IMG/VR virus record: IMGVR_UViG_2778261179_000011
Direction: 5' to 3' (one strand)
DNA length: 21,526 nt
From: a virus
Taxonomy: Duplodnaviria; Heunggongvirae; Uroviricota; Caudoviricetes
The translations under genes and the position numbers were made by a program. Under the pieces are notes generated by a model. It was not told where the DNA came from. It made no database searches and saw nothing but the letters and a program-made list of their open reading frames with translations. Below, piece after piece: positions 1 through 21,526 of this stretch; position 1 is the stretch's first letter, and every line of letters starts with the position of its first letter.

Positions 1-142
1 TGACAAAGTCATCGGGCATTATCTGAACATAAAACACTATCAATAAGTTGGAGTCATTACCAAACAAAAGAACGAGTTAAAAGTTGAAATTACTGGAGAT
101 AAGAAACATCCTAGTCTAGGGGATAAAATCCGCGCTGCGGCG

Positions 143-457: not shown

Positions 458-490
458 CAACTAATTTGCATTCTATTGCTATCGCAAGGG

Positions 491-513
491 AATTTAGCTA
501 GTTTAGCTAAATT
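491..513. promoter_or_regulatory. Perfect 10-bp inverted repeat (AATTTAGCTA-gtt-TAGCTAAATT), candidate operator
   Basis: Read directly from sequence. Lies 30 bp upstream of the ATG at 543 and overlaps an AT-rich -10-like TATAAA at 513-518. Confidence 0.35.
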
Positions 514-542
514 ATAAAAACGAGCCGTAAGCGAACATTCAG

Positions 543-782
543 ATGAACGAGCAAGAAATTTACGCACAAATCAAAAAAGCTCTGCAAGAGGCACCTCGCA
601 ATCAATACACCGCTGAGCTGCATCTGCAAATGATCAAATATGCTGATGAGCTAAAGAACATCACAGCCAAAGAGTTTTGTGAAGGGGTGGGCCTGCGGAG
701 CAGCTTTGGCACCGAATTTAGCAAAATGCGCAATCTGACTCAGCGCTTGAAAGCTGCCGGGCTCGATACAGCCAAGCTATAA
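543..782 (+). CDS. Small hypothetical protein, 79 aa; possible regulator
   Basis: ATG start, preceded by the inverted repeat at 491-513 and followed 52 bp later by hsdM. No family recognised from sequence. Confidence 0.4.
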   Translation: MNEQEIYAQIKKALQEAPRNQYTAELHLQMIKYADELKNITAKEFCEGVGLRSSFGTEFSKMRNLTQRLKAAGLDTAKL

Positions 783-834
783 CGACTCAAATTTAATCGT
801 GCCGGGCCAATGCTCGGTAATGTAAGGAACAACC

Positions 835-4643: not shown

Positions 4644-4653
4644 GGACACGAAT

Positions 4654-6072: not shown

Positions 6073-8086
6073 GATAACGAGCTTTTCCATTAGGCAGCTG
6101 TTAGCAGATCACGCCTCCTATCAGATCCCTATGTATCAGCGTAACTATGCGTGGGAAAAAGGCGAAATTGATCAGCTGATTCAGGATGTTGTTGATTATC
6201 AAGTCCAAAAAAAGCCTTACTACATCGGCAGCTTAGTGGTGTATCCACGGGATAATCAGCTATTTGAAGTGATTGACGGCCAGCAACGCTTTACCACGCT
6301 CACGCTAATTGCTTTATGTTTGAAGCACTTCAGCATGTTGGCTGAAAAAGAAGGGACAACGTCTGTTAATAAAGTTGACATGAGTTGGTATCAAACGCCT
6401 AATTTATGCTTTGAAAGCCGCGCTAACTCAACCCTCACCCTTGAAAAAATAACAGCCTTTAGCGCCTCTACTGCTAAGCATTTGTCACTAGATCCAGCCG
6501 ATATTAATCAGTGCAACAGCGCTATTTTAAATGGCTTTAACTTGGTGCAGCAGGCGTTATCTGAGCTTGCTAAACAGCATGACCTACATCAGTTTTGTGA
6601 GTACTTATTTGATTGGGTAAAAATCACCCGCGTCCCCGTTCCCCACGACACTGATTTAACCCATTACTTTGAGGCGATGAATAATCGCGGGGAACAGCTA
6701 GAAAAACACGAAGTGCTAAAAGCCAGAATGCTCTCTGTGCTGCAAGATGCCAGCCACCAACACCCTGAGAATAAAAGCGCGCAGGAAGTGCTCAATAAAG
6801 TGTGGAATGCCTGCGCCAATATGGAGCGTTATGTGCAGTTTGGCTTTAACCCCATCGAGCGCCAGCAGATCTTTGGCAATGAGTGGCAAAAATTTACCGC
6901 TAACAGCTTTACTGAGCTTCATCACGCGCTAATAGCCCCTGAAAACAGAGCAGCCAACACCACAGTCGACACTCATAGTGATGAGCCAGCCGCCAAATCA
7001 CTGGCTGAAATGTTGAACACACCTTATACCGATAAACAGGCAGAAACAGATAAAAATCAACCATCGCCTGAACGCTTTAACAGCGTGATTAATTTTTCTA
7101 ACTTTTTATTGCAGGTCTTAAGGGTTTACAGCCAAAAAGACATTTCTTTGGACGATAAGCAGTTAATTGATCAGTTCGAAACGCATATTTTGCACGCAGA
7201 CGAGGCAGCAGAAAAAGTTAAAGCGTTTGTGTTTGCCTTATTAAAATCCAAATACCTATTTGATCACTACGTGATAAAACGCGATGCGACGGCTCAGGAC
7301 AAGTGGGGCATCAAGCAATTAAAACGCTATGAGCGCAATAGCCAAAGCTACGTCAATACCTTTGCCCAAAACGATCAGCCTGATACCACTCACTCGCAAT
7401 TAAATCAGCGCATTGTTTTATTACTAAGCGCCTTTCATGTCTCTACGCCCACCATGAACTACAAGCACTGGTTAACCGGCGTTTTGCATATCCTGCATCA
7501 ACTGCACGCCAAGCAACTCGATGCAGACAACTATTTAAAGGCACTCGAAAAGCTCGCCAGAAGCTTTATCTATGGGCGTTATTTGGCTAAAACAGCGGCT
7601 GATTATTACACACTGATTTTTGATAACCCGAAGGACTATCAACCCTTAGCGGACACGTGTTTTTTACGGTGTCGCTTGCGCTATGGTTCGATTAAAAACA
7701 ACTTTGTATTTAACTATTTAGATTATTTGCTGTGGTGCACCACCCAAGATAAGGACCTGGTGTATCGTGAGTTTGAATTTAGTTTTAGAAGCTCGGTCGA
7801 GCATTTCTACCCACAAGATCCCTACTCTGGCGAACCATTAGAGGATGGGCCTTTGCATAGTTTTGGTAACCTATGCCTAATTAGCCACAGCAAAAACTCT
7901 AAGCTCAGCAACTACCAACCCACGGCTAAAAAAGAGCACTTTCAAGCAGCCAGCACCCAAGGCAAAATCGACTCACTCAAGCTGTATGAAATGACTCGGG
8001 TTAAAGTATGGGATGCAGATGCTATCCACAAGCATGAAACCCAAATGCTGGGATTGTTTATTAAGGATTCTGAGGGAGAAAAATGA
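6056..8086 (+). CDS. DUF262 + DUF1524 (His-Me finger/HNH-like) protein, 676 aa; GmrSD-like putative modification-dependent (Type IV-like) restriction endonuclease
   Basis: N-terminal ...IPMYQRNYAW... with DGQQR (6275-6289). C-terminal SVEHFYPQ...GNLCLISHSKNSKLSN (about 7793-7915), typical of the DUF1524 nuclease module. Overlaps the previous gene by 17 bp and hsdR by 4 bp. Confidence 0.75.
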   Translation: MSNPNKITSFSIRQLLADHASYQIPMYQRNYAWEKGEIDQLIQDVVDYQVQKKPYYIGSLVVYPRDNQLFEVIDGQQRFTTLTLIALCLKHFSMLAEKEGTTSVNKVDMSWYQTPNLCFESRANSTLTLEKITAFSASTAKHLSLDPADINQCNSAILNGFNLVQQALSELAKQHDLHQFCEYLFDWVKITRVPVPHDTDLTHYFEAMNNRGEQLEKHEVLKARMLSVLQDASHQHPENKSAQEVLNKVWNACANMERYVQFGFNPIERQQIFGNEWQKFTANSFTELHHALIAPENRAANTTVDTHSDEPAAKSLAEMLNTPYTDKQAETDKNQPSPERFNSVINFSNFLLQVLRVYSQKDISLDDKQLIDQFETHILHADEAAEKVKAFVFALLKSKYLFDHYVIKRDATAQDKWGIKQLKRYERNSQSYVNTFAQNDQPDTTHSQLNQRIVLLLSAFHVSTPTMNYKHWLTGVLHILHQLHAKQLDADNYLKALEKLARSFIYGRYLAKTAADYYTLIFDNPKDYQPLADTCFLRCRLRYGSIKNNFVFNYLDYLLWCTTQDKDLVYREFEFSFRSSVEHFYPQDPYSGEPLEDGPLHSFGNLCLISHSKNSKLSNYQPTAKKEHFQAASTQGKIDSLKLYEMTRVKVWDADAIHKHETQMLGLFIKDSEGEK

Positions 8087-11000
8087 GTAACGTCGGCCAG
8101 CGTGAACGCATGACCCAACAGCGCATTGTTGAGCTGTTTCAAACGGATTTAGGCTACCGCTATTTAGGTAACTGGGAATACCGCGATAACAATAAAAACA
8201 TAGAAGTTGAGCTACTAACGAGCTGGCTGAAAAAGCGCGGCATAAGCGAGGCGCTGATTAATCGCGTGATTCGTCAGCTAGACAGCGCAGCGGCGCTGGG
8301 CGAAGGTAAAAAGCTCTATTACGCCAACAAAGAGGTTTATCGCCTGCTGCGTTACGGCGTGAAAGATAAAGAAGGTGCTGGCCATCTTAATGAAACCGTG
8401 TGGCTGATTGACTGGAAAAATCCAGAAGCAAACGATTTTGCCATTGCCGAAGAAGTCTCTATCAAGGGTGAAAACAAAAAATGCCCAGACATAGTGCTGT
8501 ATGTCAATGGTATCGCTCTAGGTGTGATTGAGCTGAAACGCTCTTCGGTGTCTGTCTCTGAGGGTATTCGCCAGAACCTCGATAACCAAAAGAAAGATTT
8601 TATCCGTAACTTCTTCACCACCATGCAATTGGTGATGGCGGGTAACGACACGCAAGGCTTGCGTTACGGCACGATTGAAACCCCGGAGAAGTATTATCTT
8701 GAATGGAAAGAAGAGATAGAGAACGGGTATAGCCATAAGCTCGACTTTCACCTGAGCCGCGTATGCAATAAAGCGCGTTTTTTACAGATCATCCACGATT
8801 TTATTGTTTTCGATGCGGGTATTAAAAAGACCTGTCGTCACAATCAGTTCTTTGGTATTGAAGCGGCAAAACGCCATATCGCAAGGCGTGAAGGCGGCAT
8901 TATTTGGCATACGCAAGGTTCTGGCAAAAGCCTCACTATGGTGTGGTTGGCCAAATGGATACGTGAAAATGTCAAAGACGCCCGTGTATTGATCGTGACC
9001 GATCGTACCGAGCTGGATGAGCAGATAGAAAAAGTATTCACCGGTGTTGAGGAAGATATTTATCGCACCAAAAGCGGTGCCGATTTGGTGGCGACGCTCA
9101 ATCAGCCCAACCCTTGGTTGGTATGCTCTTTAGTCCATAAATTTGGTCGGCAGTCTGATTCGGAAAACGATACCGCGACGGATGAGTTTATTGCCGAGTT
9201 AAAGAAATCCCTACCATCGGACTTTAAAGCCAAAGGCGACCTATTCGTATTTGTTGATGAATGCCACCGTACTCAATCGGGCAAGTTGCACGAAGCGATG
9301 AAGTCCATTCTGCCAGAAGCCATGTTTGTCGGCTTCACCGGCACCCCCTTGATGAAGAAAGACAAGAAAAAATCGGTTGAGGTATTTGGCCCTTACATTC
9401 ACACCTATAAGTTTGATGAAGCTGTGGCCGATGGCGTTGTGCTCGATTTACGCTACGAAGCACGAGACATCGACCAAAATGTCACGTCGCAGAAAAAGGT
9501 CGATGAATGGTTTGAAGCCAAAACTCGCGGCTTATCTCGATTAGCGAAAACCCAGTTGAAACAGAAATGGGGCACCATGCAAAAGGTGCTGTCCAGTAAA
9601 TCGCGTTTGCAGCAGATTGTGAATGATATCTTGCTGGATATGGACACTAAGCCACGCCTGATGGATGGCTACGGCAATGCCATGTTGGTCTGCTCTAGTG
9701 TCTATCAAGCTTGTAAAGCTTATGAAATGTTCAGCCAAACAGATTTAGCCGGCAAGGTGGCTATTGTCACCAGTTTTCAGCCGACCGCTGCGAGCATTAA
9801 AGGGGAAGAAACCGGTGAAGGCTTAACGGAAAAGCTCTTTAAGTACGATATTTACCGCAAAATGCTTGCGGATTACTTCGAGCAACCGGAAGACAAGGCC
9901 GCTAACCGAGTTGAAGAGTTTGAAAAAGAAGTTAAAAAACAATTTATTGATGAGCCAGGGCAAATGCGCTTGCTCATCGTGGTCGATAAGTTGCTGACTG
10001 GCTTCGACGCCCCTTCGGCTACCTATTTGTATATCGACAAACAGATGGCTGATCACAATCTGTTTCAGGCCATTTGCCGCGTGAACCGCTTGGATGGCGA
10101 TGATAAAGAATACGGTTACATCATTGACTACAAAGATCTGTTCCGCTCGTTGGATAAAGCGATTTCTGATTATACTCAAGGCGCATTTGATGGTTATGAC
10201 AAGGAAGACGTTGCAGGGCTGCTGAAAGATCGTTTAGAGCAAGCCAAGCTCGATTTGGATAATGCGCTGGAAATGGTGCGCGCCTTGTGTGAGCCGGTAA
10301 AAGCGCCACGCAACACGGAAGACTACATTTATTATTTTTGTGGTAAGTCAGGTCTGAACCAAGACGAGCTCACCGAGAAAGAAGCACTGCGTTTAACGCT
10401 TTATCAGAACGTTGCCAAACTGCTGCGTGCGTTCGCCAATATCGCCAATGAAATGCCTGATGCAGGCTATTCTGCGCAAGATGTAGACTCGATAAGAACA
10501 GAAGTGGCTCATTTTGAAAAAGTCCGTGACGAAGTAAAACTGGCCAGTGGCGATTTGGTAGAAATGAAACGCTTTGAGCCTGCGATGCGCCATTTGTTAG
10601 ATATGTATATTCGTGCGGATGACAGCGAAGTACTGATGGATTTTGAAGAGCTGGGGCTTATTGAGCTCATTGTCGAAAAAGGCGCTGATGCCGTGGAGGC
10701 TTTGCCTGATAGTATTCGCAAGAATCAGGAAGCCATGGCCGAAACCATCGAAAATAACGTGCGTAAAACCATCGTTGATGAAAACCCGGTTAACCCCAAG
10801 TATTACGAGCAAATGTCGGTGTTATTGGATGAGCTGATTGAGCTTCGTCGCCAAAAAGCGATTGAATATCAAGAGTATTTGGAAAAAATCCGCGAGCTGT
10901 CTCGTAAGGTTATACGTCCGGAGCAGACAGCGGCTAACTATCCGCCATCGATGGACTCTAATCCAAAACGCGCGTTTTACGATAATTTTGGTCAAGATGA

Positions 11001-11175
11001 ATTGCTGGCTACCAAAATAGATAGTGCCATTCGTTATACCAAAAAAGCGGATTGGGTCGGAGATCGCTTTAAGGAGCGAGAAATTGCCAATGCGGTGCGA
11101 GAAGAAACGACGGGGTATGAGGTGGATATTCAGGGTGTAATGGAATTGGCAAAAGCGCAAAAAGAGTACCATTGA
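8083..11175 (+). CDS. hsdR: Type I restriction enzyme endonuclease/translocase subunit HsdR (1030 aa)
   Basis: N-terminal PD-(D/E)xK nuclease motif (PDIVLYVNGIALGVIELK). SF2 helicase motifs: Walker A HTQGSGKSLT (about 8911-8940), motif II FVDECHR (about 9253-9273), motif III FTGTP. ATGA overlap with the upstream gene. Confidence 0.9.
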   Translation: MSNVGQRERMTQQRIVELFQTDLGYRYLGNWEYRDNNKNIEVELLTSWLKKRGISEALINRVIRQLDSAAALGEGKKLYYANKEVYRLLRYGVKDKEGAGHLNETVWLIDWKNPEANDFAIAEEVSIKGENKKCPDIVLYVNGIALGVIELKRSSVSVSEGIRQNLDNQKKDFIRNFFTTMQLVMAGNDTQGLRYGTIETPEKYYLEWKEEIENGYSHKLDFHLSRVCNKARFLQIIHDFIVFDAGIKKTCRHNQFFGIEAAKRHIARREGGIIWHTQGSGKSLTMVWLAKWIRENVKDARVLIVTDRTELDEQIEKVFTGVEEDIYRTKSGADLVATLNQPNPWLVCSLVHKFGRQSDSENDTATDEFIAELKKSLPSDFKAKGDLFVFVDECHRTQSGKLHEAMKSILPEAMFVGFTGTPLMKKDKKKSVEVFGPYIHTYKFDEAVADGVVLDLRYEARDIDQNVTSQKKVDEWFEAKTRGLSRLAKTQLKQKWGTMQKVLSSKSRLQQIVNDILLDMDTKPRLMDGYGNAMLVCSSVYQACKAYEMFSQTDLAGKVAIVTSFQPTAASIKGEETGEGLTEKLFKYDIYRKMLADYFEQPEDKAANRVEEFEKEVKKQFIDEPGQMRLLIVVDKLLTGFDAPSATYLYIDKQMADHNLFQAICRVNRLDGDDKEYGYIIDYKDLFRSLDKAISDYTQGAFDGYDKEDVAGLLKDRLEQAKLDLDNALEMVRALCEPVKAPRNTEDYIYYFCGKSGLNQDELTEKEALRLTLYQNVAKLLRAFANIANEMPDAGYSAQDVDSIRTEVAHFEKVRDEVKLASGDLVEMKRFEPAMRHLLDMYIRADDSEVLMDFEELGLIELIVEKGADAVEALPDSIRKNQEAMAETIENNVRKTIVDENPVNPKYYEQMSVLLDELIELRRQKAIEYQEYLEKIRELSRKVIRPEQTAANYPPSMDSNPKRAFYDNFGQDELLATKIDSAIRYTKKADWVGDRFKEREIANAVREETTGYEVDIQGVMELAKAQKEYH

Positions 11176-11888
11176 TGCCTAAGGTAGAAATTGGTTCTAT
11201 TGCGATGCAGTTAAATCGTAAGGCAATTAAAAACCTTCATATCAGCGTGTTGCCACCTGATGGGCGTGTGCGTGTTTCTGCTCCTGAATCTATGACAGAA
11301 ACCGCAATCCGTATGGCAGTGATCAGCCGCATTCCTTGGATCAAGAAACAGCAGAGTGTTTTTGCCAAACAACCTCGCCAATCTGATCGAGCAATGGTTA
11401 GCGGTGAATGTCATTACCTGTGGGGCAGGCGTTATCGTCTGAATCTTATCGAGCGTTCCGGAAAGCATGAAATCAAGCTAGGTCGTGGTCGATTGCATTT
11501 ATATGTCAATCCCGCAACAACGCTTGAGAACAAGGCACTGGTACTGAACTCATATTATCGAGATGCACTTAAAACGCGAATCGCTGAGTTATTGCCTGTT
11601 TGGGAAGATAAGATCGGCGTTAAAGCTGTAGATTGGGGAATTAAAAAGATGAAAACCAAGTGGGGCAGCTGCAATATTCAGGCAAAGCGCATTTGGCTAA
11701 ATTTAGAGCTTGCTAAAAAGCCACCGGAGTGTTTGGAGTACATCCTAGTGCATGAATTGGTGCACTTGCTTGAGCGTAATCACAATGAACGCTTCAAGGG
11801 GTATATGGACAAGCTACTTCCCGATTGGCGAGAGCGCAGAGATTTGTTGAATCGGATGCCCTTGGCGCACAACGATTGGGTGTACTAG
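11175..11888 (+). CDS. M48-family / YgjP-like (DUF45) zinc-dependent hydrolase, ~237 aa
   Basis: HExxH zinc-binding motif HELVHLLE (11751-11774) preceded by WGSC. ATG at 11175 overlaps the hsdR stop (TGATG); the track ORF starts 3 nt earlier at TTG 11172. This family is commonly found directly downstream of hsdR. Confidence 0.75.
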   Translation: MPKVEIGSIAMQLNRKAIKNLHISVLPPDGRVRVSAPESMTETAIRMAVISRIPWIKKQQSVFAKQPRQSDRAMVSGECHYLWGRRYRLNLIERSGKHEIKLGRGRLHLYVNPATTLENKALVLNSYYRDALKTRIAELLPVWEDKIGVKAVDWGIKKMKTKWGSCNIQAKRIWLNLELAKKPPECLEYILVHELVHLLERNHNERFKGYMDKLLPDWRERRDLLNRMPLAHNDWVY

Positions 11889-12284
11889 GAAAATTATGCA
11901 GAGTTTGCATGGTTAGCCTGATTATGTATGTGGCGCGTAATTTGAGATAAACTTGATAGTAAAAGCGGGAAATGGATTTCATTTCTCCGATATTTTGCTC
12001 AGGTGCTGTCGCTAAAAGTGTCAAGATTCTATCTTTACGCTTGGCGGCCAATACTCCCGCAGTACCTACCCAGAAAATAGCCAATATTGGGATCAACTTA
12101 ACAGTTTTGGCTTTGTTTATTATAAAAACCAGCACTTTCAATTAGTTGAATGGTTTATTCGCTAGTTTATGTGAACTACCGTTCTAACGAATAGAACACC
12201 CCGAGATATTGCTTTCGCTGGTGGGAAAACATTCCTAACCAACCTGAAGGCGCAATACATCAGTTTTTAAGCAGAGAAAAGACT

Positions 12285-13079
12285 ATGACAGCACAAAATA
12301 CTAAAACAATTCAATACCGCCTGCGTAATGGCCAGAGTGTCGAAGTGACCATCAATAATGATGGTGTACCTGGCGAAAAGGTTTCTATCTCTGATCTGGC
12401 TATCGAAAAAACCATCATGTGCCACCTTGGCTTTACTGAAGAAGTGAGCAAAAAGCATGGTGTAGCTATCTGGCGCACAATGGATACTGGAATGCGCAGA
12501 TTCATTACTGCTCGTACCCCTGGTATGACCATGATGGACCTCATACAGATTGCGCCGCTGTTTGAGTGTGAACCTTTGGATGTATTCAGCAATCCAGCTA
12601 TCTGCCAGCAGTTATATGGTGAGATGAAACTCGCGGTTACCCCCATTGTGCTGCATGAAGGATCGCTTGCTGGCGTATGGAAAGTAGAGCGAATTTCAAG
12701 CTACATGCCATTCCACATCCATGTCAACGGCGTAATCGCAGGTGAAAATCAACCTGTTTCAGTTACAAAGTCAGACCTCAATCGCGCAATTCTTGAAGCA
12801 AGTTGTCGAGTTATCGGCCTGGGCAAACAGTCTTATGTTTCCTTCCCGGCTGGTCCTGAAGGCCCGGCAGAAATTCTGATTATGGATGCCGATCTGCTCT
12901 GGCAAATACAGTTTCTGATTGGCAAAAGCATCATCCGCGCTGAAGAACTCGATCAGTACATTACCTGCACGATGACGGATGAAGTCAAAAGTGTGGCTAT
13001 AGCCAATGCCCGGAAGCTATGTCGTGCTGCATTAACAGAACTGCAAGAAAACACCACGGAAGAAGTGGAAAGCGATTAA
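12285..13079 (+). CDS. Hypothetical protein, 264 aa, function unknown
   Basis: Clean ATG ORF after a ~400-bp AT-rich intergenic region; ends 3 bp before a strong hairpin terminator. No motif recognised. Confidence 0.5.
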   Translation: MTAQNTKTIQYRLRNGQSVEVTINNDGVPGEKVSISDLAIEKTIMCHLGFTEEVSKKHGVAIWRTMDTGMRRFITARTPGMTMMDLIQIAPLFECEPLDVFSNPAICQQLYGEMKLAVTPIVLHEGSLAGVWKVERISSYMPFHIHVNGVIAGENQPVSVTKSDLNRAILEASCRVIGLGKQSYVSFPAGPEGPAEILIMDADLLWQIQFLIGKSIIRAEELDQYITCTMTDEVKSVAIANARKLCRAALTELQENTTEEVESD

Positions 13080-13081
13080 AA

Positions 13082-13105
13082 AAAATCCCGCCGATTGGCG
13101 GGATT
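13082..13105. terminator. Bidirectional rho-independent terminator (10-bp perfect stem AAATCCCGCC / GGCGGGATTT, 4-nt loop)
   Basis: Read directly from sequence. Minus-strand orientation is followed by a U-run of 8 or more (A-run 13076-13084 on plus); plus-strand orientation by TTTCTTC. Sits between convergent genes 12285-13079 (+) and 13109-13426 (-). Confidence 0.65.
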
Positions 13106-13108
13106 TCT

Positions 13109-13426
13109 TCAATATACGATCTGGTCTACATGATCCCCAAAATCATCGTCGTCATCGTCGTCGTCCTCATCGCCACCCTCTACTGCTGGCCAATCAACAA
13201 ACCAGCCAGCGTAAAGATGCAGCGTTCGGAGAACATCACTTGCGGGAGCATCAAGGGTGTTAACGAATCCCATATAGCTATTGGGATTTGCCCCAGCTAT
13301 GGCTTCAGCGATCATGTCCTCGGTAATGTCACCGGAGATAATGCTTAAACGCCCGGAAACTTCTTCATTATCATCAAATTCGATAATGGCATCTCCGCCT
13401 AATGGCGCTGCGATTTTAATCTGCAT
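13109..13426 (-). CDS. Highly acidic small protein, 105 aa, with a D8 tract (DEDDDDDDDDFGD); last gene of the dar-like operon
   Basis: About 26 Asp/Glu against about 3 Lys/Arg. Poly-Asp encoded by a (GAY)n run at 13142-13171. Overlaps the upstream 995-aa gene by 11 bp. Confidence 0.5.
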   Translation of the reverse strand: MQIKIAAPLGGDAIIEFDDNEEVSGRLSIISGDITEDMIAEAIAGANPNSYMGFVNTLDAPASDVLRTLHLYAGWFVDWPAVEGGDEDDDDDDDDFGDHVDQIVY

Positions 13427-16403
13427 TATTTAGCTCCTTTGCCACACCTAATAACAGTTCCAGCAATCCGTCACCATTCATCAGTGATGCGGCAGCGGCC
13501 TCTTTGTCATGATACAACTGAAGAGCCATAGAGAATACTTCCGTTGCTGACGTTTTGGAAATAGTCGGGGATTTCTGCCGAATTTTCCCAGTGTTACTTA
13601 CTGAGGCTGGCGGGTATACCTTCGCCATATAAATATTACTCAATCGAGATCTGAAGCACCATTCAGGCTTGCCACGCCCACCGATATTAACGAAAGATGG
13701 CTTATCCCCTTCAACATTGGCCTTCAGGAATGACCGGGCTTTCTCTAACAAACCAGGGTTACTGTACTCAAGATGATGACCCAGCTCGTGCCACAGTGCA
13801 CTTGCATTTTCATCGTTCAAATTGACAGCAACAACACCATTAAGATTTGCATATGCCCTTCCCTGGTGGTGAACCACCTTTGATAAGGTCGAAATTTTAC
13901 CGCCGGTCAGGCGATAAATATCAGCAAGTTCCTTGCGCAGGTCTATCCCACCATTCTGTCCAGCGCGGGCTTCTTCCACTTCTTCCGTGATAAAAGAGTC
14001 GGCCCACTCAAGAGCTTTTTCTTCAGATACGGATGAGTTGGCGATCGCACTGTTCATGGCAGATAACACTTTCTCGTGGACCGAACCCATACTTCGCTGA
14101 TTCATTTGCCAGCGTGTCTGCGGGTTATATGAGAATCGCTTAAGTAGTTGGTCAAGCTGCTCAAGTTCTTCTTCACTGACATACTTTTTAGCCTCACCAA
14201 TAATGCCAGGGAGAATATTGCCGTTAGGATTAAACGCTCGCGAAAGGAAGAGTTTCAGCGCCCCCATGCCCTCCGATGCTTCAATATCACCAATAACCCG
14301 GTTAACAATGGCCGCACTCTTCGGATTAGCATCCGCCAACGCTCTGGCTACGATTTGCAGGGACGATACGACCTCACGCTGCATATCAGTCCTGATCTCA
14401 TCAATAAACTCTGGCGTTATGCCGTGCTCTTTAAGGATATCCCTGCCTTCCGCCGTTACCCCATCGATATCACCGACATGTTTATTAACCTGACTTTGCA
14501 ATGCCTTAAATGCCTTCAGAATTCCACGGGCATCATCAGCTTTACTAACGGCCTTCCTGAATACTGGCAAGAAGTCAGAGTTAACCTCATTTTGTTGATC
14601 GGCCCACTGAATGGAGGCTTCTTTCATCTCGTCCAGAGTCAGATCACCCAACGCGGTATGGTCTGTGAATATGAGCGACAACCTCTGAACCATTTCTGCC
14701 AATGGTGATGCCGAATGCGCCGCGCTAAGGAATGCTTTCACCCTGGTTGGGCGAATGGAAAACCAGTCAATAGCTGGTGGCATATCTCCGTTTTTTATCG
14801 CCTGCGCTATCTCATCAAAGCCGTCGCGCCCAAGGGAGGATGCGTGATTTAACAATCCGCGAAGTAACGAATTGCTGATACCGAATAATCGGCACCATTT
14901 TTTTACGTCGGCAACAGGCATTCGGACAAAATGCGCAAGCACTTGTACAAGCTGCTCATCCTGGGGATCGGTGCGGGATAGCAGCCTGATCAGATGAATA
15001 ATGTCTTTGATTCCGGATGCCCGATGTAATAGCAAGCTGGTATATGGAGCAACACCGTTGTAACTACCGCCGGAAGCTGACTCGAAAAGACCGCCGGATA
15101 TCCCTTGCATACCTTCGTTTTCCAGTTCCTGAGATACCTGGCGAAGGATATCCTGTAACGACACATCACCGCCGCCAAACATATCCCCGAGCGCCTGGCC
15201 CTGGTGCTGTAACTCATCATTGATACGTTGTGCCATCAACTTAAAGGCGGTGGCCATACGCTTCGCGCTACGGTTATTCGCGACGATAAACAACGCGAGT
15301 GCTTTCACTTCCGGGGCCGTTTCGCTGAACATATCCCCCTGAGCAATAACATCGGTAATATGTTGGCCTGACTCCTTCGATTGCCTTACCAGGTCTACCG
15401 CATCTTTCAATGCAGCCAGCGCCTTTTTATCGAGGCTATCCGCTGTTTCAATGCTATCAACGATAGTTGTCACAGCCTGCTTGTGCGCTTCTCCTGATAA
15501 AGCCTGCATCTGGACAAAATCATTGGCCGCCGCATTAAGCGCCGTCAGAACATTACGCATATCCGGATCAGGTTCTTCTGCAACCATCCTTACCAAGCGC
15601 GCATCCTTATATGCCTTGGCAAAGATCGCGTTTTGTATCCGGTCAACAAGTTGCCGTGTTGGTCGCCCATCTTCAGTTACAAGTCCAGCCGCCTGTGTGG
15701 CACCAACTTGCGTCATAAATCCGCGAATAAACGCGTCATTACTGCGGCTAAGCAGATCTCCGCTTTCTGACGGGTTAAAAAGCGCCATCATCGCCGGTGT
15801 TATGCTGTCGGCATCAACAAAAGCCTTTTCACTGGCTGCCATTTCCTGAAGATCAGAAATATTTGAGTCTTTGGCAAACTGAACGCGGTCAACCTTAGTT
15901 AACCGGCGGCGCACCAGTACCGGAGCCGTCATTGATTCAACCTTTTCAGGACGTATGCCGAATTCGCTCGCATGTTCAATCAGGTACTCCCGATACCGAT
16001 CCGCATTGCCGTCCTGATAGGCTTTAATGATCCCCATGGTTCGTCCATTACCTGACTCAACGGCATTGTCCTCACCAATTATCGGCGCTCCATGGCTGGA
16101 TAAACCGGAGTCGGTAAGCTGAGCAGGCCGCAAATCCTTGGATATCTGGTTAACCTGAAGAATACTGGATGCGCGGGTCCGGTCGCGCGGCTGAAGTTCC
16201 TGGGGATAGTCCGGATTAATTTTCCCGTCCAGAGTATTGGATACCAAAAGAGCTGAGGCATCGACGATATCAAACGCTGTTTTTACCTCGTCTCCCTTCG
16301 CTGTCACCACATACGAAACCCGCCCATAATCGGGCAGGTTCTTTAGCAGCTCGATCAGCGTTTCTATGCTGGTGGCCATTACCACCTGATCGCTTAAGCT
16401 CAT
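13416..16403 (-). CDS. ddrB: DdrB-like large protein, 995 aa, with an HExxH zincin motif near the C-terminus
   Basis: ATG start. HELGHH encoded at 13773-13790 (verified by reverse-complementing the DNA). Size and position after the ddrA-like and darA-like genes match the P1 darA operon as I recall it. Confidence 0.6.
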   Translation of the reverse strand: MSLSDQVVMATSIETLIELLKNLPDYGRVSYVVTAKGDEVKTAFDIVDASALLVSNTLDGKINPDYPQELQPRDRTRASSILQVNQISKDLRPAQLTDSGLSSHGAPIIGEDNAVESGNGRTMGIIKAYQDGNADRYREYLIEHASEFGIRPEKVESMTAPVLVRRRLTKVDRVQFAKDSNISDLQEMAASEKAFVDADSITPAMMALFNPSESGDLLSRSNDAFIRGFMTQVGATQAAGLVTEDGRPTRQLVDRIQNAIFAKAYKDARLVRMVAEEPDPDMRNVLTALNAAANDFVQMQALSGEAHKQAVTTIVDSIETADSLDKKALAALKDAVDLVRQSKESGQHITDVIAQGDMFSETAPEVKALALFIVANNRSAKRMATAFKLMAQRINDELQHQGQALGDMFGGGDVSLQDILRQVSQELENEGMQGISGGLFESASGGSYNGVAPYTSLLLHRASGIKDIIHLIRLLSRTDPQDEQLVQVLAHFVRMPVADVKKWCRLFGISNSLLRGLLNHASSLGRDGFDEIAQAIKNGDMPPAIDWFSIRPTRVKAFLSAAHSASPLAEMVQRLSLIFTDHTALGDLTLDEMKEASIQWADQQNEVNSDFLPVFRKAVSKADDARGILKAFKALQSQVNKHVGDIDGVTAEGRDILKEHGITPEFIDEIRTDMQREVVSSLQIVARALADANPKSAAIVNRVIGDIEASEGMGALKLFLSRAFNPNGNILPGIIGEAKKYVSEEELEQLDQLLKRFSYNPQTRWQMNQRSMGSVHEKVLSAMNSAIANSSVSEEKALEWADSFITEEVEEARAGQNGGIDLRKELADIYRLTGGKISTLSKVVHHQGRAYANLNGVVAVNLNDENASALWHELGHHLEYSNPGLLEKARSFLKANVEGDKPSFVNIGGRGKPEWCFRSRLSNIYMAKVYPPASVSNTGKIRQKSPTISKTSATEVFSMALQLYHDKEAAAASLMNGDGLLELLLGVAKELNNAD

Positions 16404-16415
16404 CCCTGTTACGCC

Positions 16416-16781
16416 TTATGCTGCCTCTTTAATGTTGGCGGCTATCCATGCCGCCGTGTGCTGTTTAACCTGGTCCAGGTCGATGTATGTGCCAACATAT
16501 TGACTCAAGTCCTGCAAGGTACCGATAAATGCATCTGTGCTCTGATCGACGAATTTATCAGCCAGGAAATCAGCAACCAGTTTTGGCACACCATCATGTT
16601 CCGAAGGTTGTTTTTCATCGCCACTACCACCGCCGGACGCGCCGTACCCCATCTGTTGCATGATCTGGTCAATTTCATCGCTGATATCCAGCAACTCCAT
16701 GCCACTCGCGGTGGCCGCTTTGGACATCAGAGCATCCAACTTATCGCTGAGATCCATTAACTCAATAGCTGATAGTGTCAT
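16416..16781 (-). CDS. ddrA: DdrA-like small acidic protein, 121 aa
   Basis: ATG overlaps the stop of the upstream 639-aa gene (ATGA). Called by size and operon position only. Confidence 0.5.
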   Translation of the reverse strand: MTLSAIELMDLSDKLDALMSKAATASGMELLDISDEIDQIMQQMGYGASGGGSGDEKQPSEHDGVPKLVADFLADKFVDQSTDAFIGTLQDLSQYVGTYIDLDQVKQHTAAWIAANIKEAA

Positions 16782-18697
16782 GCCGCTACCCCCGCTTTCT
16801 GGATTGCTACCAACAGATCAGCCAGGTGGCGAGCTGCGCCGTTAACCAGCTCTTCGTTTTCCTCAAAACGTCCGGCAGCCTGAAGGGCTGCAATCGCTTC
16901 CCGGACATTGCCCCGGGCGTTACGGATCTCCGCCATGTCAGTGCTTTGCATATCCATTACGTTATTGAGATATTCAATGGCTTTATTAGCCTCTGCATCT
17001 GCTTCGCTAACCGTTTCATCAGGCTGTGCCGGGGCCGGTTCTGGCTGAGTAATCTCACCGACTTCGGCCTGCAATGCATTGATCATGCTCTGCACCATTT
17101 TCTCGGTGCCAGCGCCCCCAGGAAACGCAATATTGGGGAAAGTTTTTTGAAACTGAGTTTTCAGCATTACGCGGAACTCGTCTGGTGAGCTGGTGGCCAG
17201 CTCCAGAGCTTTTTGTGCATATTTGCCAAACGGACCATTAGTAAGTGTCTTCGCCAGGAAGTCGAAAGAATCCTCGCGAGGCAATAACTTCAGGTCGTAC
17301 TCACTCATTTGCTGATCAGAAAGCGGGGTATCGTAAGTAGCAATGCCGTAGCGTGCATATTCATAATACGGGTCACCTTCATCAGGGCGCGGCAGAATTG
17401 CTTTGTTACCTTCAGGTATTGCGCCAGGGGCCGCCGGACGCATTTGCAGGGCATATCGATATGCACCTACAGAGACTTCTGGTTCAGGCGAAGAGCTACC
17501 GGTATCCTCCGCTGGTTCAGGTTCGACGTTTTCCGGTTTATGTTCTTCTGGTTGGACCTGGTATTCCGATACATTACCCGCTTTATAGGCTTTAAACAGC
17601 TTGCCGATCGCATCTGCCATGTCCACACCCTGTATGGATTTAGCCTTGATCATGTACACGCTGCCATCCGAATCGGTTAACTGGATATACCCTTCGCCGT
17701 CCTCAATGAATTGCTTCATTGATGCACCATTACTGAGCGTCACTTCCCCGTTCATATGCATACGATTTTTGATACTGGCAAGGCGATCCATCATCGCGCG
17801 AGAGTGTCCACCAGTCATCCCCGCAGGAGCAATGGTATCGCGCCCACCAGTGCGATTGAGCTGATCAATCTCCGTCTGCAAACGCTCATTCTCTTCATAA
17901 AGAGAATCCGCTTCCGATGCAACAGCGTTAATTTTCTGCTCCAGATCTGCCTTCTGCCCTTCTACCGCTGCCACCTGATCCACGAGGTCGCTCATGGCAT
18001 CCTCTTTCTGGTCACTGTCAGCCTGTAGTTGGGTTATTTCATCAACAAGGGCTTTTTTCTTCTTCTGCGCACGCTGGAATTTTGCCGAGTTTTTCTCTGC
18101 AAGGTTGGCAAGTTTCATGGTGACCTGCGCCAGCGTCATATCACGTCCACTCATCGGAGCAACGGTATGAGTAACGTCTTTTTTATTCAGTAAGAACTGG
18201 AAAGCAATCAGCGTATCGCTATTGGTGATCCGGTTTTCCGCTGTCGGGCTATGAAACAGAATGCTGATAGTCTGACCATCACTGAGCGGAATAATGGCTG
18301 GCAGGACTGGCAGCCCGTTAACGTTACGTGCCCGGCCAATTTCAGCGCCGCCGATCGCGCGCGCGCCGCTCTGGGCCACATCCCCCGTTTTATCACTCCC
18401 CGCAGATATTCCGGTACCATTCAGCTTCTGGTTCAATGCCCGGACAAATGCCTGCATGGTCCGGTGTAACTGCAAACGAGTAGAACTAATCGCCTCCAGT
18501 AAATCCGTAGCACACCAGTGGATCGGCGTGTCATAGAAGAACGTAGCCTCGATTTCTTCCAGGGTGTTGGATTCCGTCATCAGATAGCGGTCCTCACCGG
18601 CCATTAATGCGCGATATTCATCATCAGTCACTGGCGGGGGAAGCACGTCAAGCCCAGGCTTGATCGTCACCCCTTTATTGATATTGAACTGTTCCAT
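16778..18697 (-). CDS. darA: DarA-like protein, 639 aa (antirestriction / capsid morphogenesis component in P1)
   Basis: ATG with RBS AGGAAATTAAC; central coiled-coil segment. Contains a segment paralogous to the upstream 203-aa protein (shared ...DGQ...I...NSAKFQ...), the relationship that defines P1 hdf as a homologue of a DarA fragment. Confidence 0.65.
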   Translation of the reverse strand: MEQFNINKGVTIKPGLDVLPPPVTDDEYRALMAGEDRYLMTESNTLEEIEATFFYDTPIHWCATDLLEAISSTRLQLHRTMQAFVRALNQKLNGTGISAGSDKTGDVAQSGARAIGGAEIGRARNVNGLPVLPAIIPLSDGQTISILFHSPTAENRITNSDTLIAFQFLLNKKDVTHTVAPMSGRDMTLAQVTMKLANLAEKNSAKFQRAQKKKKALVDEITQLQADSDQKEDAMSDLVDQVAAVEGQKADLEQKINAVASEADSLYEENERLQTEIDQLNRTGGRDTIAPAGMTGGHSRAMMDRLASIKNRMHMNGEVTLSNGASMKQFIEDGEGYIQLTDSDGSVYMIKAKSIQGVDMADAIGKLFKAYKAGNVSEYQVQPEEHKPENVEPEPAEDTGSSSPEPEVSVGAYRYALQMRPAAPGAIPEGNKAILPRPDEGDPYYEYARYGIATYDTPLSDQQMSEYDLKLLPREDSFDFLAKTLTNGPFGKYAQKALELATSSPDEFRVMLKTQFQKTFPNIAFPGGAGTEKMVQSMINALQAEVGEITQPEPAPAQPDETVSEADAEANKAIEYLNNVMDMQSTDMAEIRNARGNVREAIAALQAAGRFEENEELVNGAARHLADLLVAIQKAGVAA

Positions 18698-18698
18698 G

Positions 18699-19310
18699 TT
18701 AATTTCCTGCTTTCAGTTGCTTAAGACGGCGTTTGAGTTCGCCATTTCGGGCCTTTTCGTTATTGAGTCGGCCTGTCTCCTTATCCAGCTTCGCCCGCAA
18801 ATCAGTGATCTGCTGTTGATTGAAAGACACCGAGTTCTGCGCTGATTTATAAGCGGCAACCACCTGAGCATTCCGCTGTTTTGCCTCTTGCAGGCGCTGA
18901 AAGTTGGATTTTACTGCCGGTTTCTTGTCTACCGGATTGGCAACACGTTTCGCTTTGGCGATCAGTGATTTCTGGAATTTTGCGGAGTTTTTGCGGGCCG
19001 CTTGCCCCATGACGGTACCAAGCGTCTTGATATCCGGCGACTGAGCGTTAGGAATAGCTTTTCCATTCAGCCTCACAGACGATATATCGCCAGTATCGTT
19101 TACCTGTATGGCAAGAATTTGTCCGTCGTTAAGAACCAGCTTTGCGGTTTTAACTTTAACGCCATCTTTCGTTGTTGCGCGGTTGCTGGAGTCAACCTCA
19201 ATTACCGTAACACCGGTTTTATTGATCGCCGCGATAAGGGATTTCAGCCCCTTTTCATTAACCTGGTCAAAATCGACCGTTGCATACTTATTTTTCGTCA
19301 TCTGACACAT
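18699..19310 (-). CDS. hdf: Hdf-like protein (homologue of DarA fragment), 203 aa
   Basis: Shares the NSAKFQ-containing segment with the 639-aa protein. Its stop TAA abuts the darA-like ATG. Lysine-rich coiled-coil C-terminus. Confidence 0.6.
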   Translation of the reverse strand: MCQMTKNKYATVDFDQVNEKGLKSLIAAINKTGVTVIEVDSSNRATTKDGVKVKTAKLVLNDGQILAIQVNDTGDISSVRLNGKAIPNAQSPDIKTLGTVMGQAARKNSAKFQKSLIAKAKRVANPVDKKPAVKSNFQRLQEAKQRNAQVVAAYKSAQNSVSFNQQQITDLRAKLDKETGRLNNEKARNGELKRRLKQLKAGN

Positions 19311-19731
19311 CCTGTGCGAGATTTATTACGTAACTTCTGCGGATTTGCTGAGTAACAGGGAAAATCCGATACAACGGGTTAATGAACGAGTCGCCATGCG
19401 TAACCATGACGTTGAAATGCCACAGTCGCTCTCCTTTACCCATATATTCAGTGGGTATGTACAACCATTCACTGTTTTCGCCCTGTTCAGCCGACGTCAA
19501 ACAACGTTGTTCGCCTTCAATCACTGTCGTCGGCTTCTGAACATCGCGGATCCAATATCTGACCGTTGCGCCGCGCAAAAACGGGAATTTAGACCGGTAT
19601 TTGAACGGCACCCGGATGAAACCCGGTTTAATTTCCACATCACCAAGTTCTAAATGCGTGATGTCCTTGCGTTTTAGCAAATAGCGATCGGCTAAGGCTA
19701 ACGCAAGAACGCATACACCCCAGCCAATCAT
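19288..19731 (-). CDS. lydB: LydB-like protein, 147 aa (lysis regulator/antiholin in P1)
   Basis: Starts 4 bp inside the end of the holin-like gene and overlaps hdf by 23 bp. Called by size and position only. Confidence 0.45.
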   Translation of the reverse strand: MIGWGVCVLALALADRYLLKRKDITHLELGDVEIKPGFIRVPFKYRSKFPFLRGATVRYWIRDVQKPTTVIEGEQRCLTSAEQGENSEWLYIPTEYMGKGERLWHFNVMVTHGDSFINPLYRIFPVTQQIRRSYVINLAQDVSDDEK

Positions 19732-20057
19732 TTCCCGCCTCCCTTTTTCACCAAACTTGTAAGAACATTCAGAATGCTATCGATATTCACTCGTTTCATC
19801 CCTGAAATCACCTCATGACCGTTATTGCTGGCTATCGTTACCATTAAGTACGTAATTGATAACTCCCAGCCCTCGTGTTGCCCCAATAGGTACGCCACCG
19901 CGCCAGCTGTCACTGCAACAAAGATCTCCGTAACCAATCCCAACAAATTGCCAGACTGGCGACCGTCTCGGACATCCATCAGGAACGTGCCTATCCCACC
20001 AATTACTGAAAGCAGGAGCGCAATAGCAACTGGAGCTAATTCCTGTGTGTCAAGCAC
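19728..20057 (-). CDS. lydA: LydA-like holin, 109 aa
   Basis: GTG start with a strong SD (TAGGAGGGAACTT-GTG). Two or three hydrophobic helices (VAIALLLSVIGGIGTFL; LLGLVTEIFVAVTAGAVAYLLG) and a charged C-terminus, typical of a small phage holin. Confidence 0.55.
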   Translation of the reverse strand: MLDTQELAPVAIALLLSVIGGIGTFLMDVRDGRQSGNLLGLVTEIFVAVTAGAVAYLLGQHEGWELSITYLMVTIASNNGHEVISGMKRVNIDSILNVLTSLVKKGGGK

Positions 20058-20131
20058 AAGTTCCCTCCTACGTTGTCAGGAGGTAATGGTATGCAAAGTA
20101 ACTTCTCAACCGGTTATGTTGCATAAGAGAC

Positions 20132-20395
20132 TTACCTATTCAACCGACTTTTGGAACCTTCAATAATAAGCCTGCTATTGGCGCTGAAAATAAGAACCAT
20201 GCAGCTCTGAAGGCTTTCATTCATGTCCTTATATTCCGCGAGATACATGCCAATAAAGCCAGCAAGTACGGCGGAAATACATTCGGCCAGCAATTTCTTG
20301 CATGAAGACTCGTAACGGTTTTCACATAGCCCACTCAAATACGAATACACCCCACCAAGAAGGGATAACATCACGATATGTACATAAAATGTCAT
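20132..20395 (-). CDS. Small membrane protein, 87 aa (two predicted transmembrane helices), holin-like
   Basis: ATG start; hydrophobic segments IVMLSLLGGVYSYLSGL and AVLAGFIGMYLAEY. First gene downstream of the 435-bp intergenic region after the invertase. Confidence 0.4.
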   Translation of the reverse strand: MTFYVHIVMLSLLGGVYSYLSGLCENRYESSCKKLLAECISAVLAGFIGMYLAEYKDMNESLQSCMVLIFSANSRLIIEGSKSRLNR

Positions 20396-20466
20396 TTTTT
20401 ACCTATACAACAGTAAGTTGAACAACATTTGAGAACGGTATGCACTTTGTGATTTCCACACACACT

Positions 20467-20485
20467 GGTTTTGTTAATTAAAACC
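20467..20485. promoter_or_regulatory. Inverted repeat GGTTTT-gttaatt-AAAACC in the lyd/dar operon upstream region
   Basis: Read directly from sequence; 6-bp arms, 7-nt AT-rich spacer, about 70 bp upstream of the 87-aa gene start. Confidence 0.25.
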
Positions 20486-20691
20486 TGTGGCTTGCAATAA
20501 ATAACGATAGTGGGCAAAAAATATGCTAATAGGCTATGTACGCATATAGACAAATGAACAAAACACAGCTATGCAGTGAAAAGCACTTGAAAGCGCAGGA
20601 TGTGAGCTAATTTTTGCGAATAAGGCGAGCAGCAAAAAGGCTGGGCACCCTGGGTTAAAAAAGGTTCTGCGTATGCTTTCCAGAGGTGATA

Positions 20692-20710
20692 CCCTAGTCT
20701 CGGACTAGGG
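20692..20710. repeat. Perfect hairpin/palindrome CCCTAGTC-tcg-GACTAGGG
   Basis: Read directly from sequence; 8-bp arms. A related sequence, CCTAGTCTAGGGG, occurs at 110-122. Confidence 0.4.
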
Positions 20711-20830
20711 ACAACATTTCGAGAACAGTTTTCATTAGCGGTCAGCAGGCGCTAGATACATCGAATTGATGTGCCGCGCGATAAATGTACCTATTCTATC
20801 AAGATAAATTACACCGACGCGGCATTAGAA

Positions 20831-21403
20831 TTACAGCTCAGATTGAGTTTGGCGCTTCTCTACAGGATGATAACGATAAATCGTCGATACACCGATATCG
20901 TAAATAATTGCCAACTGTTTCCTGCTGTAGCCATTTTCGATCAACCTCGCTATTTGCTCATGTTGTTCTTTTGTCAACTTCGGGCGACGTCCGCCAATGC
21001 GTCCCTGTTCGCGTGCAGCTGCCAGTCCGGCCAGTGTTCTCTCAACAATTAATTCACGTTCCATTTCTGCTAAAGCACCCATGACATGAAAAAAGAAACG
21101 CCCCATGGGTGTTGATGTGTCAATACTGTCTGTCAGACTACGGAAATTAACACCTTTTTCCCGCAACTCCTCTATAAGCGTGATAAGGTGTTTCATACTT
21201 CTGCCAAGCCTATCCAGCTTCCAGACAACCAGCGTATCTCCTTCTGATAACGTTCTGAGCAGCTTTTTCAAGCCTGGTCTGGCTGACTTTGTTCCGCTTA
21301 TTTTATCTTCAAAAATCAGTTCACATCCTGCGCAGTTCAGTGCATTTCTTTGTAAATCTGTGTTTTGGTCATTTGTTGACACACGAATGTAGCCAATTTG
21401 CAT
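20831..21403 (-). CDS. cin: Serine DNA invertase of the Cin/Gin/Hin/Pin family (190 aa from ATG 21403)
   Basis: N-terminus MQIGYIRVSTNDQNTDLQRNAL (catalytic Ser), then DTLVVWKLDRLGRSMKHLI and GRFFFHVMGALAEMERELI, and a C-terminal HTH: near-identical to Gin/Cin as I recall them. SD AAAGAGG 8 nt upstream of ATG 21403; the track start at 21412 is an upstream TTG. Confidence 0.9.
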   Translation of the reverse strand: MQIGYIRVSTNDQNTDLQRNALNCAGCELIFEDKISGTKSARPGLKKLLRTLSEGDTLVVWKLDRLGRSMKHLITLIEELREKGVNFRSLTDSIDTSTPMGRFFFHVMGALAEMERELIVERTLAGLAAAREQGRIGGRRPKLTKEQHEQIARLIENGYSRKQLAIIYDIGVSTIYRYHPVEKRQTQSEL

Positions 21404-21457
21404 GAAAAACAACCTCTTTGTTTAGTTAAAAATACATCGTTGGTATAGGTAGGGATT

Positions 21458-21483
21458 AAGACTAAAACGTTGGTTTGGGGGAA
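21458..21483. other. Candidate 26-bp invertase crossover site (cix/gix/hix-like)
   Basis: Plus strand AAGACTAAAACG-TT-GGTTTGGGGGAA; reverse complement TTCCCCCAAACC-AA-CGTTTTAGTCTT, fitting the family half-site consensus TTnTCnnAAACC on one side and partially on the other. Begins 55 bp upstream of the invertase ATG. Confidence 0.4.
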
Positions 21484-21526
21484 GGCTCAGCATTGCCTGT
21501 TGGCGTACCTGTTCCGTGGCCCTCAG

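Follow-up and report, generated by a model that had tools for sequence, protein, structure and literature searches.

The 21,526-nucleotide virus record IMGVR_UViG_2778261179_000011 (IMG/VR; Caudoviricetes), called the window hereafter, carries a Type I restriction-modification (R-M) cassette close to a dar operon. Very probably, the window joins two separate entities: a P1-like (Punavirus) phage-plasmid backbone with the dar operon at positions 12186-21526, and, in the left 12 kb, a GInt-type island ('genomic island with three integrases') located at the ssb gene of the phage-plasmid. A preliminary description of the window had placed the dar operon next to the R-M cassette and proposed that one element encodes both restriction and its evasion. 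The window does encode an entire Type I R-M system along with those Dar genes that belong to the darA operon, but the idea of a designed pairing does not hold, as the R-M system is cargo of an ssb-targeting island. The R-M system lies beside Dar because the island targets ssb, and in P1-like backbones about 1 kb lies between the ssb stop codon and the distal end of the dar operon. Therefore, any island that targets ssb lands beside dar. The adjacency is a consequence of target-site choice and not evidence of a functional module. Nor is the contact immediate, since an isaA-like gene (12285-13079) and hxr lie between the cassette and ddrB.

The island and its junctions at ssb

The identity of the left part comes from its chromosomal relatives. 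No match to the cassette was found in P1-like phages. Positions 62-12183 are 99.98-99.99% identical to chromosomal loci of Escherichia coli A29, PO06101 and WEM25 (L003 and L004 are among these loci), with many further loci at about 97%. These chromosomal copies sit between ssb and yjcB (uvrA-ssb/island/yjcB; the slash marks a junction here and below), two genes that are adjacent in K-12. The classical E. coli hsd 'immigration control' locus was also considered as the identity of the cassette and is ruled out by this location. At the ssb side, full copies of the island open with integrase-family proteins of 391, 532 and 669 amino acids (aa) and a 158-aa protein, and Pfam Phage_integrase matches were obtained for all three large proteins of L004 (L-numbers label the comparison loci, and H113 below is the label of a chromosome record).

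As far as the passages seen of the GInt papers go, GInts carry at one end a ginABCD operon, for two tyrosine recombinases, a third recombinase-like protein and a small protein, and are flanked by imperfect direct repeats (PMC5385486, Bardaji et al. 2017), they favour the end of ssb without altering its product, with R-M systems as frequent cargo (PMC5385486; PMC10214605), and they are described as non-mobilizable. The near-identical full copies resemble the GInts of these passages (PMC5385486) in having, at the 5' end, three consecutive genes of the tyrosine-recombinase family and a fourth, small one. They are also alike in their variable cargo including Type I R-M, an AT-rich 3' end, imperfect direct repeats, and insertion at the end of ssb without change of SSB. 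Unlike the published GInts, the copy in the window has lost ginABCD and attL to IS1. Its target also differs: here a phage-plasmid provides the ssb, and in relatives F-like conjugative plasmids do. The passages retrieved by keyword from the GInt papers name chromosomal sites only, and no insertion of a GInt into a phage-plasmid or conjugative-plasmid ssb is mentioned in them.

The loss at the left end can be followed base by base. The island cargo and right end occupy 62-12185 (plus strand), and the terminal 61 bases of an IS1 (1-61; no strand assigned), with 98-100% identity to IS1 ends in many records, stand in place of the ginABCD operon expected at the 5' end, so that this copy by itself does not qualify as a GInt. 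Homology to full islands begins at window position 62, equivalent to L004 10001, within the gene at L004 9089-10396. IS1 cuts the island in this 435-aa gene and takes away ginABCD, attL and all beyond; the C-terminal part of the gene persists as a 'YopA family'/hypothetical remnant at 143-457 (plus strand). The operon is kept in the 97-100% identical full copies L002, L004, L008, L031 and L042. The window copy is a truncated, non-autonomous GInt remnant.

At the other end, the att (attachment) junction is intact. The right end of the island with attR was located at 12166-12187 (plus strand), where the core CCGTTCT (12179-12185) is followed by AA that completes the stop codon of the target ssb. 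This junction reads ...GTGAACTACCGTTCT/AACGAATAGAACACCCCGAG..., that is, CCGTTCT/AACGAATAG.... In the empty P1-like backbones L022, L025 and L030, the corresponding site is ...ATTCCGTTTT/AACGAATAGAACACC, base-for-base as in the window after the core, and IsaA of all three is identical to that of the window. Site-specific insertion at the 3' end of ssb is thus visible at attR; attL is absent from the window.

The same logic applies on chromosomes. The empty site of K-12 is ...GATGACATTCCGTTCTGA/TTTGTCATT... (in short form ...ATTCCGTTCTGA/TTTGTC), the attL of an occupied chromosome is ...ATTCCGTTCTAG/CCCTGATAAAT... (short form ...CCGTTCTAG/CCCTGATAAAT), and its attR is ...GTGAACTACCGTTTTGA/TTTGTCATT... 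(short form ...GTGAACTACCGTTTTGA/TTTGTC). SSB remains unchanged because the island brings a new stop codon at attL. Across the comparison loci, the island end ...GTGAACTACCGTTYT was seen joined to seven or more different flanks, each of which begins with the last two bases of a stop codon. The same end is also seen beside lambdoid-phage-like head and tail genes (L016 10992-20714, GCA_015329525.1) and, from 10992 onward in both L012 and L019, in two other chromosomal contexts. The flanks of L016, L012 and L019 may be further ssb targets.

In P1 and many P1-like plasmids, about 100 bp separate the ssb stop codon from ...ACGAA(A/T)AGAACACC. Four 'short' backbones (L010, L022, L025 and L030) have the ssb end ...ATTCCGTTTT/AACGAATAGAACACCCCGAG, with AACGAATAG directly after ssb. 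The difference of about 100 bp from P1 and from the plasmid pZ1323CEC0011-3 described below might suggest an imprecise junction, but this short variant explains it. The window junction is the attR expected from integration into the ssb of a short-variant P1-like backbone, which argues that it is biological. In the long form, GCTTTT stands just before AACGAATAG and resembles the att core CCGTTTT (L009 2340-2620, with short-form counterparts at L010 2450-2620 and around 9903 in L022, L025 and L030); the short form may be what a recombinase left behind after acting at a secondary site.

Replicons of three kinds have a full copy of the island precisely at an ssb stop codon, namely E. coli chromosomes, F-like plasmids and a single P1-like plasmid. 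The last, pZ1323CEC0011-3 (NZ_CP148442.1), has a complete island at the stop codon of P1 ssb with both att sites and no IS1, and downstream of it come a DUF2829 gene, isaA, hxr, ddrB, ddrA, darA, hdf, lydB and lydA. With the window it shares the island family, the P1 ssb site of insertion and the run of genes from isaA to lydA that comes next. Unlike the window, it has kept ginABCD and both att sites, its island allele is only about 97% identical and has a different hsdS, and its backbone retains the spacer of about 100 bp and the DUF2829/Tad2-like gene, both missing from the window. Since island allele, spacer and DUF2829 content all differ, the insertion in the window is probably independent of that in pZ1323CEC0011-3.

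Another example is E. coli isolate AF43, in which the island occupies all three intact ssb genes: the chromosomal one (L042, NZ_OZ547259.1) and those of two F-like conjugative plasmids (L008, NZ_OZ547260.1; L031, NZ_OZ547261.1), where it lies in the leading region upstream of psiB/psiA. Most genes of these copies share the same RefSeq protein accessions. The pattern suggests that the island spread by copying inside one cell and that plasmids act as its vehicles. On the AF43 chromosome, a second, distinct GInt (L042 21806-30476), with four gin-like genes and the antiviral DRT3 reverse transcriptases drt3a and drt3b, follows directly after the R-M island in tandem. Therefore, the 3' end of ssb accumulates defence islands.

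IS1 is also found around other truncated copies. IS1 copies and a type 3 fimbria (mrk) cluster adjoin the IS1-truncated island both in the A29 chromosome (L003 5550-8046) and in an unrelated 116-kb plasmid, NZ_CP061756.1 (L005 1-6636). In this plasmid, hsdR is also broken by IS30 and cut by IS26. These arrangements suggest IS1-mediated reshuffling of the island between replicons.

The dar operon of the P1-like backbone

The right part of the window is P1-like. Positions 13111-20699 are 96.3% identical in DNA to 24246-31836 of phage P1 (reference NC_005856, whose darA operon is 24244-31230), and 97-98% identical to the P1-like phages vB_EcoM-813R1, SJ46, RCS47 and P7. The matching genes are annotated in P1 as hxr, ddrB (with internal iddB), ddrA, darA, hdf, lydB and lydA, preceded by LPdar and lydC. 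In the window, the operon is in P1 order on one strand, the seven proteins from LydA to Hxr are 97-100% identical to those of P1, and the overlaps and abutments of genes are as in P1.

The preliminary description had listed minus-strand open reading frames (ORFs) of 109, 147, 203, 639, 121 and 995 aa within 13109-20057 and had matched them to lydA, lydB, hdf, darA, ddrA and ddrB of P1. All six are present with these sizes and positions, and the comparison with P1 proteins bears out every assignment, with a resemblance far beyond chance. In order of transcription, they are lydA for the holin (19728-20057; 109 aa, 100% identity to P1 LydA; Pfam Phage_holin_3_3), lydB for the LydA holin antagonist (19288-19731; 147 aa, 98.6%; Pfam LydB, E 8e-104), hdf for a DarA paralogue (18699-19310; 203 aa, 98.5%), darA for an internal head protein (16778-18697; 639 aa, 97.7%; Pfam DarA_N and DarA_C), ddrA (16416-16781; 121 aa, 97.5%), and ddrB (13416-16403; 995 aa, 98.4%; N-terminal ddrB-ParB domain by Pfam). 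The lowest ORF of the same interval had been left unnamed; it is hxr for an Xre-like putative repressor (13109-13426, minus strand; 105 aa, 97.1% identity to P1 Hxr) and overlaps ddrB by 11 bases. Inside ddrB, the ORF iddB was located at 15451-15849 on the plus strand by comparison with P1. The segment said to be shared by the 203-aa and 639-aa proteins was recovered as well. Pfam DarA_N matches both Hdf (E 1.5e-21) and DarA (E 2.7e-42), and direct BLASTP aligns the two at 31% identity over 90 aa (E 8e-4). On these matches, the paralogy of Hdf and DarA is real.

Upstream of lydA, the 19-nt LPdar, an Lpa-dependent late promoter with -22 and -10 elements (20086-20104, minus strand), is kept as an exact match to the annotated P1 feature AAGTTACTTTGCATACCAT. 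From LPdar, lydA, lydB, hdf, darA, ddrA and ddrB, together with hxr, would be expressed and give internal head proteins as well as the holin and antagonist used in lysis. In the published work, six virion proteins (DarA, DarB, Ulx, DdrA, DdrB and Hdf) act in cis to shield packaged DNA against BREX and several Type I systems (PMC12707154). DarA-Hdf pairs sit on the inner capsid surface at penton-hexon junctions, where they touch DNA; they are gone from emptied heads and are required to load the other Dar proteins (PMC12810830). Protection has been demonstrated against EcoA, EcoB, EcoK and StySA, and that against BREX is cited in review (PMC12707154, PMC12810830). By their 97-98% identity to P1, the products of the window operon would likewise be packaged in the head, DarA and Hdf coating the inner capsid and loading the other Dar proteins, and would be ejected along with the DNA and, in the next host, guard it in cis against Type I restriction.

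The window is like the P1 darA operon in gene order, sizes, overlaps, late promoter, protein identity and the DarA_N paralogy of Hdf and DarA. Unlike P1, it has neither IS1 nor isaB between isaA and hxr, its lydC is divergent (63% identical), and its invertase is Hin/Min-like and inverted relative to cin. These departures from P1 are common to many other P1-like phage-plasmids. The exact DdrB protein has 299 blocks listed, and every contig examined is P1-like; likewise, among the contigs examined, the exact DdrB and IsaA alleles occur only on P1-like contigs of about 48-100 kb. The Dar operon is already known, and nothing new comes from it.

Readings of the R-M and Dar neighbourhood

Taken together, the events may have been as follows. 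The ginABCD tyrosine-recombinase module of a full island would integrate at the last codons and stop of ssb and regenerate the stop. An island would have landed in this way in P1 ssb, one gene (isaA) upstream of the distal end of the dar operon, and a later IS1 event would have removed the recombinase module and left the cargo immobile.

Alternatively, the R-M system and Dar may have been selected as a 'defence plus counter-defence' module and kept together on the phage-plasmid. Both functions concern restriction, anti-defence and defence genes are commonly joint on P1-like phage-plasmids, and pZ1323CEC0011-3 is a second P1-like plasmid in which this site is occupied by the island, in another allele. 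However, site-specific integration at the ssb stop codon fully accounts for the position, and at the ssb genes of chromosomes and F-like plasmids the island occurs without dar genes in the vicinity. The two units are convergent, each with its own promoters. In complete E. coli genomes, the P1 side of the junction has about 280 matches on plasmids, and island and dar operon occur together in a single record of these. We therefore regard such an adaptive pairing as quite improbable. Even more doubtful is capture of a chromosomal R-M system by P1 through its resident IS1, as in the classical P1 specialised transducing derivatives. An IS1 end does border the cassette on the left, and P1 has an IS1 in this neighbourhood, between isaA and isaB. 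However, neither IS1 nor isaB is present between isaA and hxr in this backbone, and the right boundary is the island's own end, with the CCGTTYT core joined precisely to the first base after ssb in P1-like backbones whose site is empty. In pZ1323CEC0011-3, moreover, the complete island with both att sites sits at P1 ssb with no IS1, and an IS1 capture is therefore judged highly improbable.

A chromosomal or cointegrate origin deserves more attention, though it too is unlikely. It supposes that an island-bearing P1-like plasmid recombined with an IS1-truncated chromosomal copy of the A29 type, or that the two were fused during assembly across the 12-kb island they have in common. Window positions 1-12183 match the A29 chromosome at 99.99% identity including the IS1 junction, and the R-M part at 100%. 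Some strains have the identical island on chromosome and plasmids, which offers long homology for recombination or assembly collapse, and at least one chromosome record (H113) matches P1-backbone sequence. Against this origin, the junction is a precise attR at a P1-like ssb, so that a P1-like backbone with an integrated island must have existed, and pZ1323CEC0011-3, an independent complete plasmid, has the same architecture.

Several points weigh against the reading of the window as a GInt remnant integrated in the ssb of a P1-like phage-plasmid. The window has no ginABCD, attL or ssb, and the assignment to GInts depends on near-identity to full copies. The backbone part amounts to 9.3 kb, and within the window there are no P1 replication, partition or immunity genes and neither darB nor ulx. 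As the IS1/island junction is identical in the A29 chromosome, the replicon could be a chromosome-plasmid cointegrate and not a free phage-plasmid. The exact island/P1 junction is found in no public record searched: a junction-spanning query found no place with at least 80% coverage in complete E. coli genomes, PLSDB and INPHARED gave partial matches only, scans of viral, genome and metagenome contigs with an exact junction 35-mer gave 0 matches, and exact-protein look-ups for the peptidase, IsaA and DdrB led only to chromosomal-island or island-free P1-like contexts among the contigs read. Finally, HsdR and HsdM of the island appear nearer to EcoR124 than to EcoKI, whereas the demonstrated targets of Dar are EcoA, EcoB, EcoK and StySA; any interplay of Dar with this particular R-M system is thus presumptive.

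With integration of the island at the ssb of a P1-like phage-plasmid as the preferred reading, the useful result is an explanation of the neighbourhood: a defence island with Type I R-M and GmrSD-like genes entered a phage-plasmid via the phage's own ssb. It shows a route by which chromosomal defence cargo reaches P1-like elements, which are important carriers of resistance and virulence genes in Enterobacteriaceae, and it cautions that gene adjacency near an integration hotspot should not be read as functional. P1 itself already carries restriction and anti-restriction, and defence systems including Type I R-M have been reported on P1-like phage-plasmids. The literature also already describes GInts, including the R-M cargo and the preference for ssb. 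A GInt in the ssb of a phage-plasmid is therefore a modest extension, and a possible transfer route for GInts.

A wider proposal can be put forward tentatively, with somewhat less than even confidence. The island may be an active GInt for which the conserved end of ssb (codons of the ...D-I-P-F-stop tip) is a universal landing pad on chromosomes, on F-like plasmids (in the leading region) and on P1-like phage-plasmids, and it may copy itself from the chromosome onto such plasmids and phage-plasmids and reach new hosts by conjugation or phage infection. The island at three ssb genes of AF43 and the tandem DRT3 GInt fit such copy-type spread in one cell. If true, the landing pad would supply the missing horizontal-transfer route for GInts, and a P1-like phage with a common chromosomal R-M allele would be pre-methylated against restriction in every strain that has the same island. 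If full copies are still active, plasmids and phage-plasmids that bear ssb would be the transfer vehicles of the island.

Restriction cassette and remaining backbone genes

All cassette genes are on the plus strand, and their ORF lengths equal those in the 99.98-99.99% identical chromosomal copies. The Type I R-M system is complete, with HsdM, HsdS and HsdR intact by Pfam and by full-length PADLOC matches (MTase_I, full length, 1422 bits; REase_I, 1718 bits). Upstream of hsdM, a 79-aa HTH-like protein (543-782; Pfam HTH_73) is a possible regulator, the HTH_73 match in the equivalent gene of L004 (10482-10721) having an E value of 4e-32. The gene hsdM (835-3255) encodes a long-form Type I methyltransferase of 806 aa with Pfam HsdM_N and N6_Mtase. 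Its methyltransferase domains stop near residue 450, and the C-terminal 350 or so residues have no Pfam match, yet the PADLOC Type I methyltransferase model matches over its full length. The gene for the specificity subunit, hsdS (3243-4643; Pfam Methylase_S in two stretches; PADLOC Specificity_I), is the most divergent part among island copies, and the start annotated in relatives corresponds to 3252. The restriction subunit gene hsdR (8083-11175) encodes 1030 aa with Pfam HSDR_N, SWI2_SNF2/ResIII and a T1R_D3-like domain.

The nearest solved structure to HsdR is EcoR124I HsdR (E 5e-35), and the nearest solved relatives of HsdM include EcoR124II M (230 bits, versus 78 bits for EcoKI M). With the Type IC systems EcoR124I/II, the cassette shares the three-subunit organisation, and the kinship is distant. 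Unlike them, its 806-aa HsdM has the C-terminal extension of about 350 aa, and GmrSD-like genes and a YgjP peptidase gene are added: two GmrSD-like genes lie between hsdS and hsdR, and the peptidase gene follows hsdR. The second of the two (6056-8086) encodes a putative Type IV restriction enzyme of 676 aa, which has the N-terminal, ParB-like DUF262 and the C-terminal, HNH-like nuclease domain DUF1524 of the GmrSD family (Pfam GmrSD_N and GmrSD_C) and is named 'GmrSD restriction endonuclease domain-containing protein' in RefSeq. Its 472-aa neighbour (4654-6072) has DUF262 (GmrSD_N) and DUF7834 only and falls outside that family by domain content; its N-terminal domain resembles those of PADLOC HEC-06, Orf5 and SspE. 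The last island gene (11175-11888) encodes a YgjP-like/M48 zinc metallopeptidase (Pfam YgjP-like, E 9e-62), and the exact protein is found in about 1500 public assembly blocks, mostly beside yjcB.

Intact ORFs that are near-identical to widespread chromosomal copies suggest a working Type I R-M system and GmrSD-like enzyme. A lysogen would then restrict unmethylated incoming DNA and possibly, via the GmrSD-like enzyme, hypermodified DNA, and the DNA of the phage-plasmid itself would bear the methylation pattern of the island.

The order of the backbone in P1-like contigs is darB-prt-pro-lyz-ssb-(Tad2-like)-isaA-hxr-ddrB-ddrA-darA-hdf-lydB-lydA-lydC-invertase-tail fibres. Where a backbone carries the exact DdrB or IsaA allele, prt-pro-lyz-ssb is preceded upstream by a darB-like gene encoding 2255 aa. 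The first backbone gene in the window is the isaA-like gene already mentioned (12285-13079, plus strand; 264 aa, 95.8% identity to P1 IsaA), and the exact IsaA protein occurs only on P1-like contigs of about 48-95 kb, between ssb and hxr. The ssb-hxr interval is a variable spot, in which relatives have a Tad2-like gene, a porin gene, or IS1 and isaB. For example, a 225-aa Tad2-like gene (DUF2829, anti-Thoeris family) lies between ssb and isaA in many P1-like backbones (L032-L041; L002 20345-21022), and L034 has a porin gene there instead. The window has no Tad2-like gene.

P1-like DNA continues to the right of the operon with lydC, an invertase gene and tail-fibre cassettes. The lydC-like gene (20132-20395, minus strand) encodes an 87-aa holin of a divergent allele (62.8% identity to P1 LydC; Pfam Phage_holin_3_3). 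It is followed by a Hin/Cin-family DNA invertase gene of the tail-fibre inversion system (20831-21412, minus strand; Pfam Resolvase and HTH_7; 74% identity to P1 Cin), whose DNA is 98.5% identical to that of the P1-like phage vB_EcoM-673R5, where it is annotated 'Hin'. This gene is oriented opposite to P1 cin. The tail-fibre region was compared between window 20831-21526, L007 14725-18817 and L034 1-5502. In the related plasmid L007, sequence matching the final 63 bases of the window (21464-21526) recurs at six or more sites, in or at the ends of short tail-fibre C-terminal cassettes. Together with the invertase, this points to a multiple-inversion tail-fibre system rather than a single C segment as in P1.

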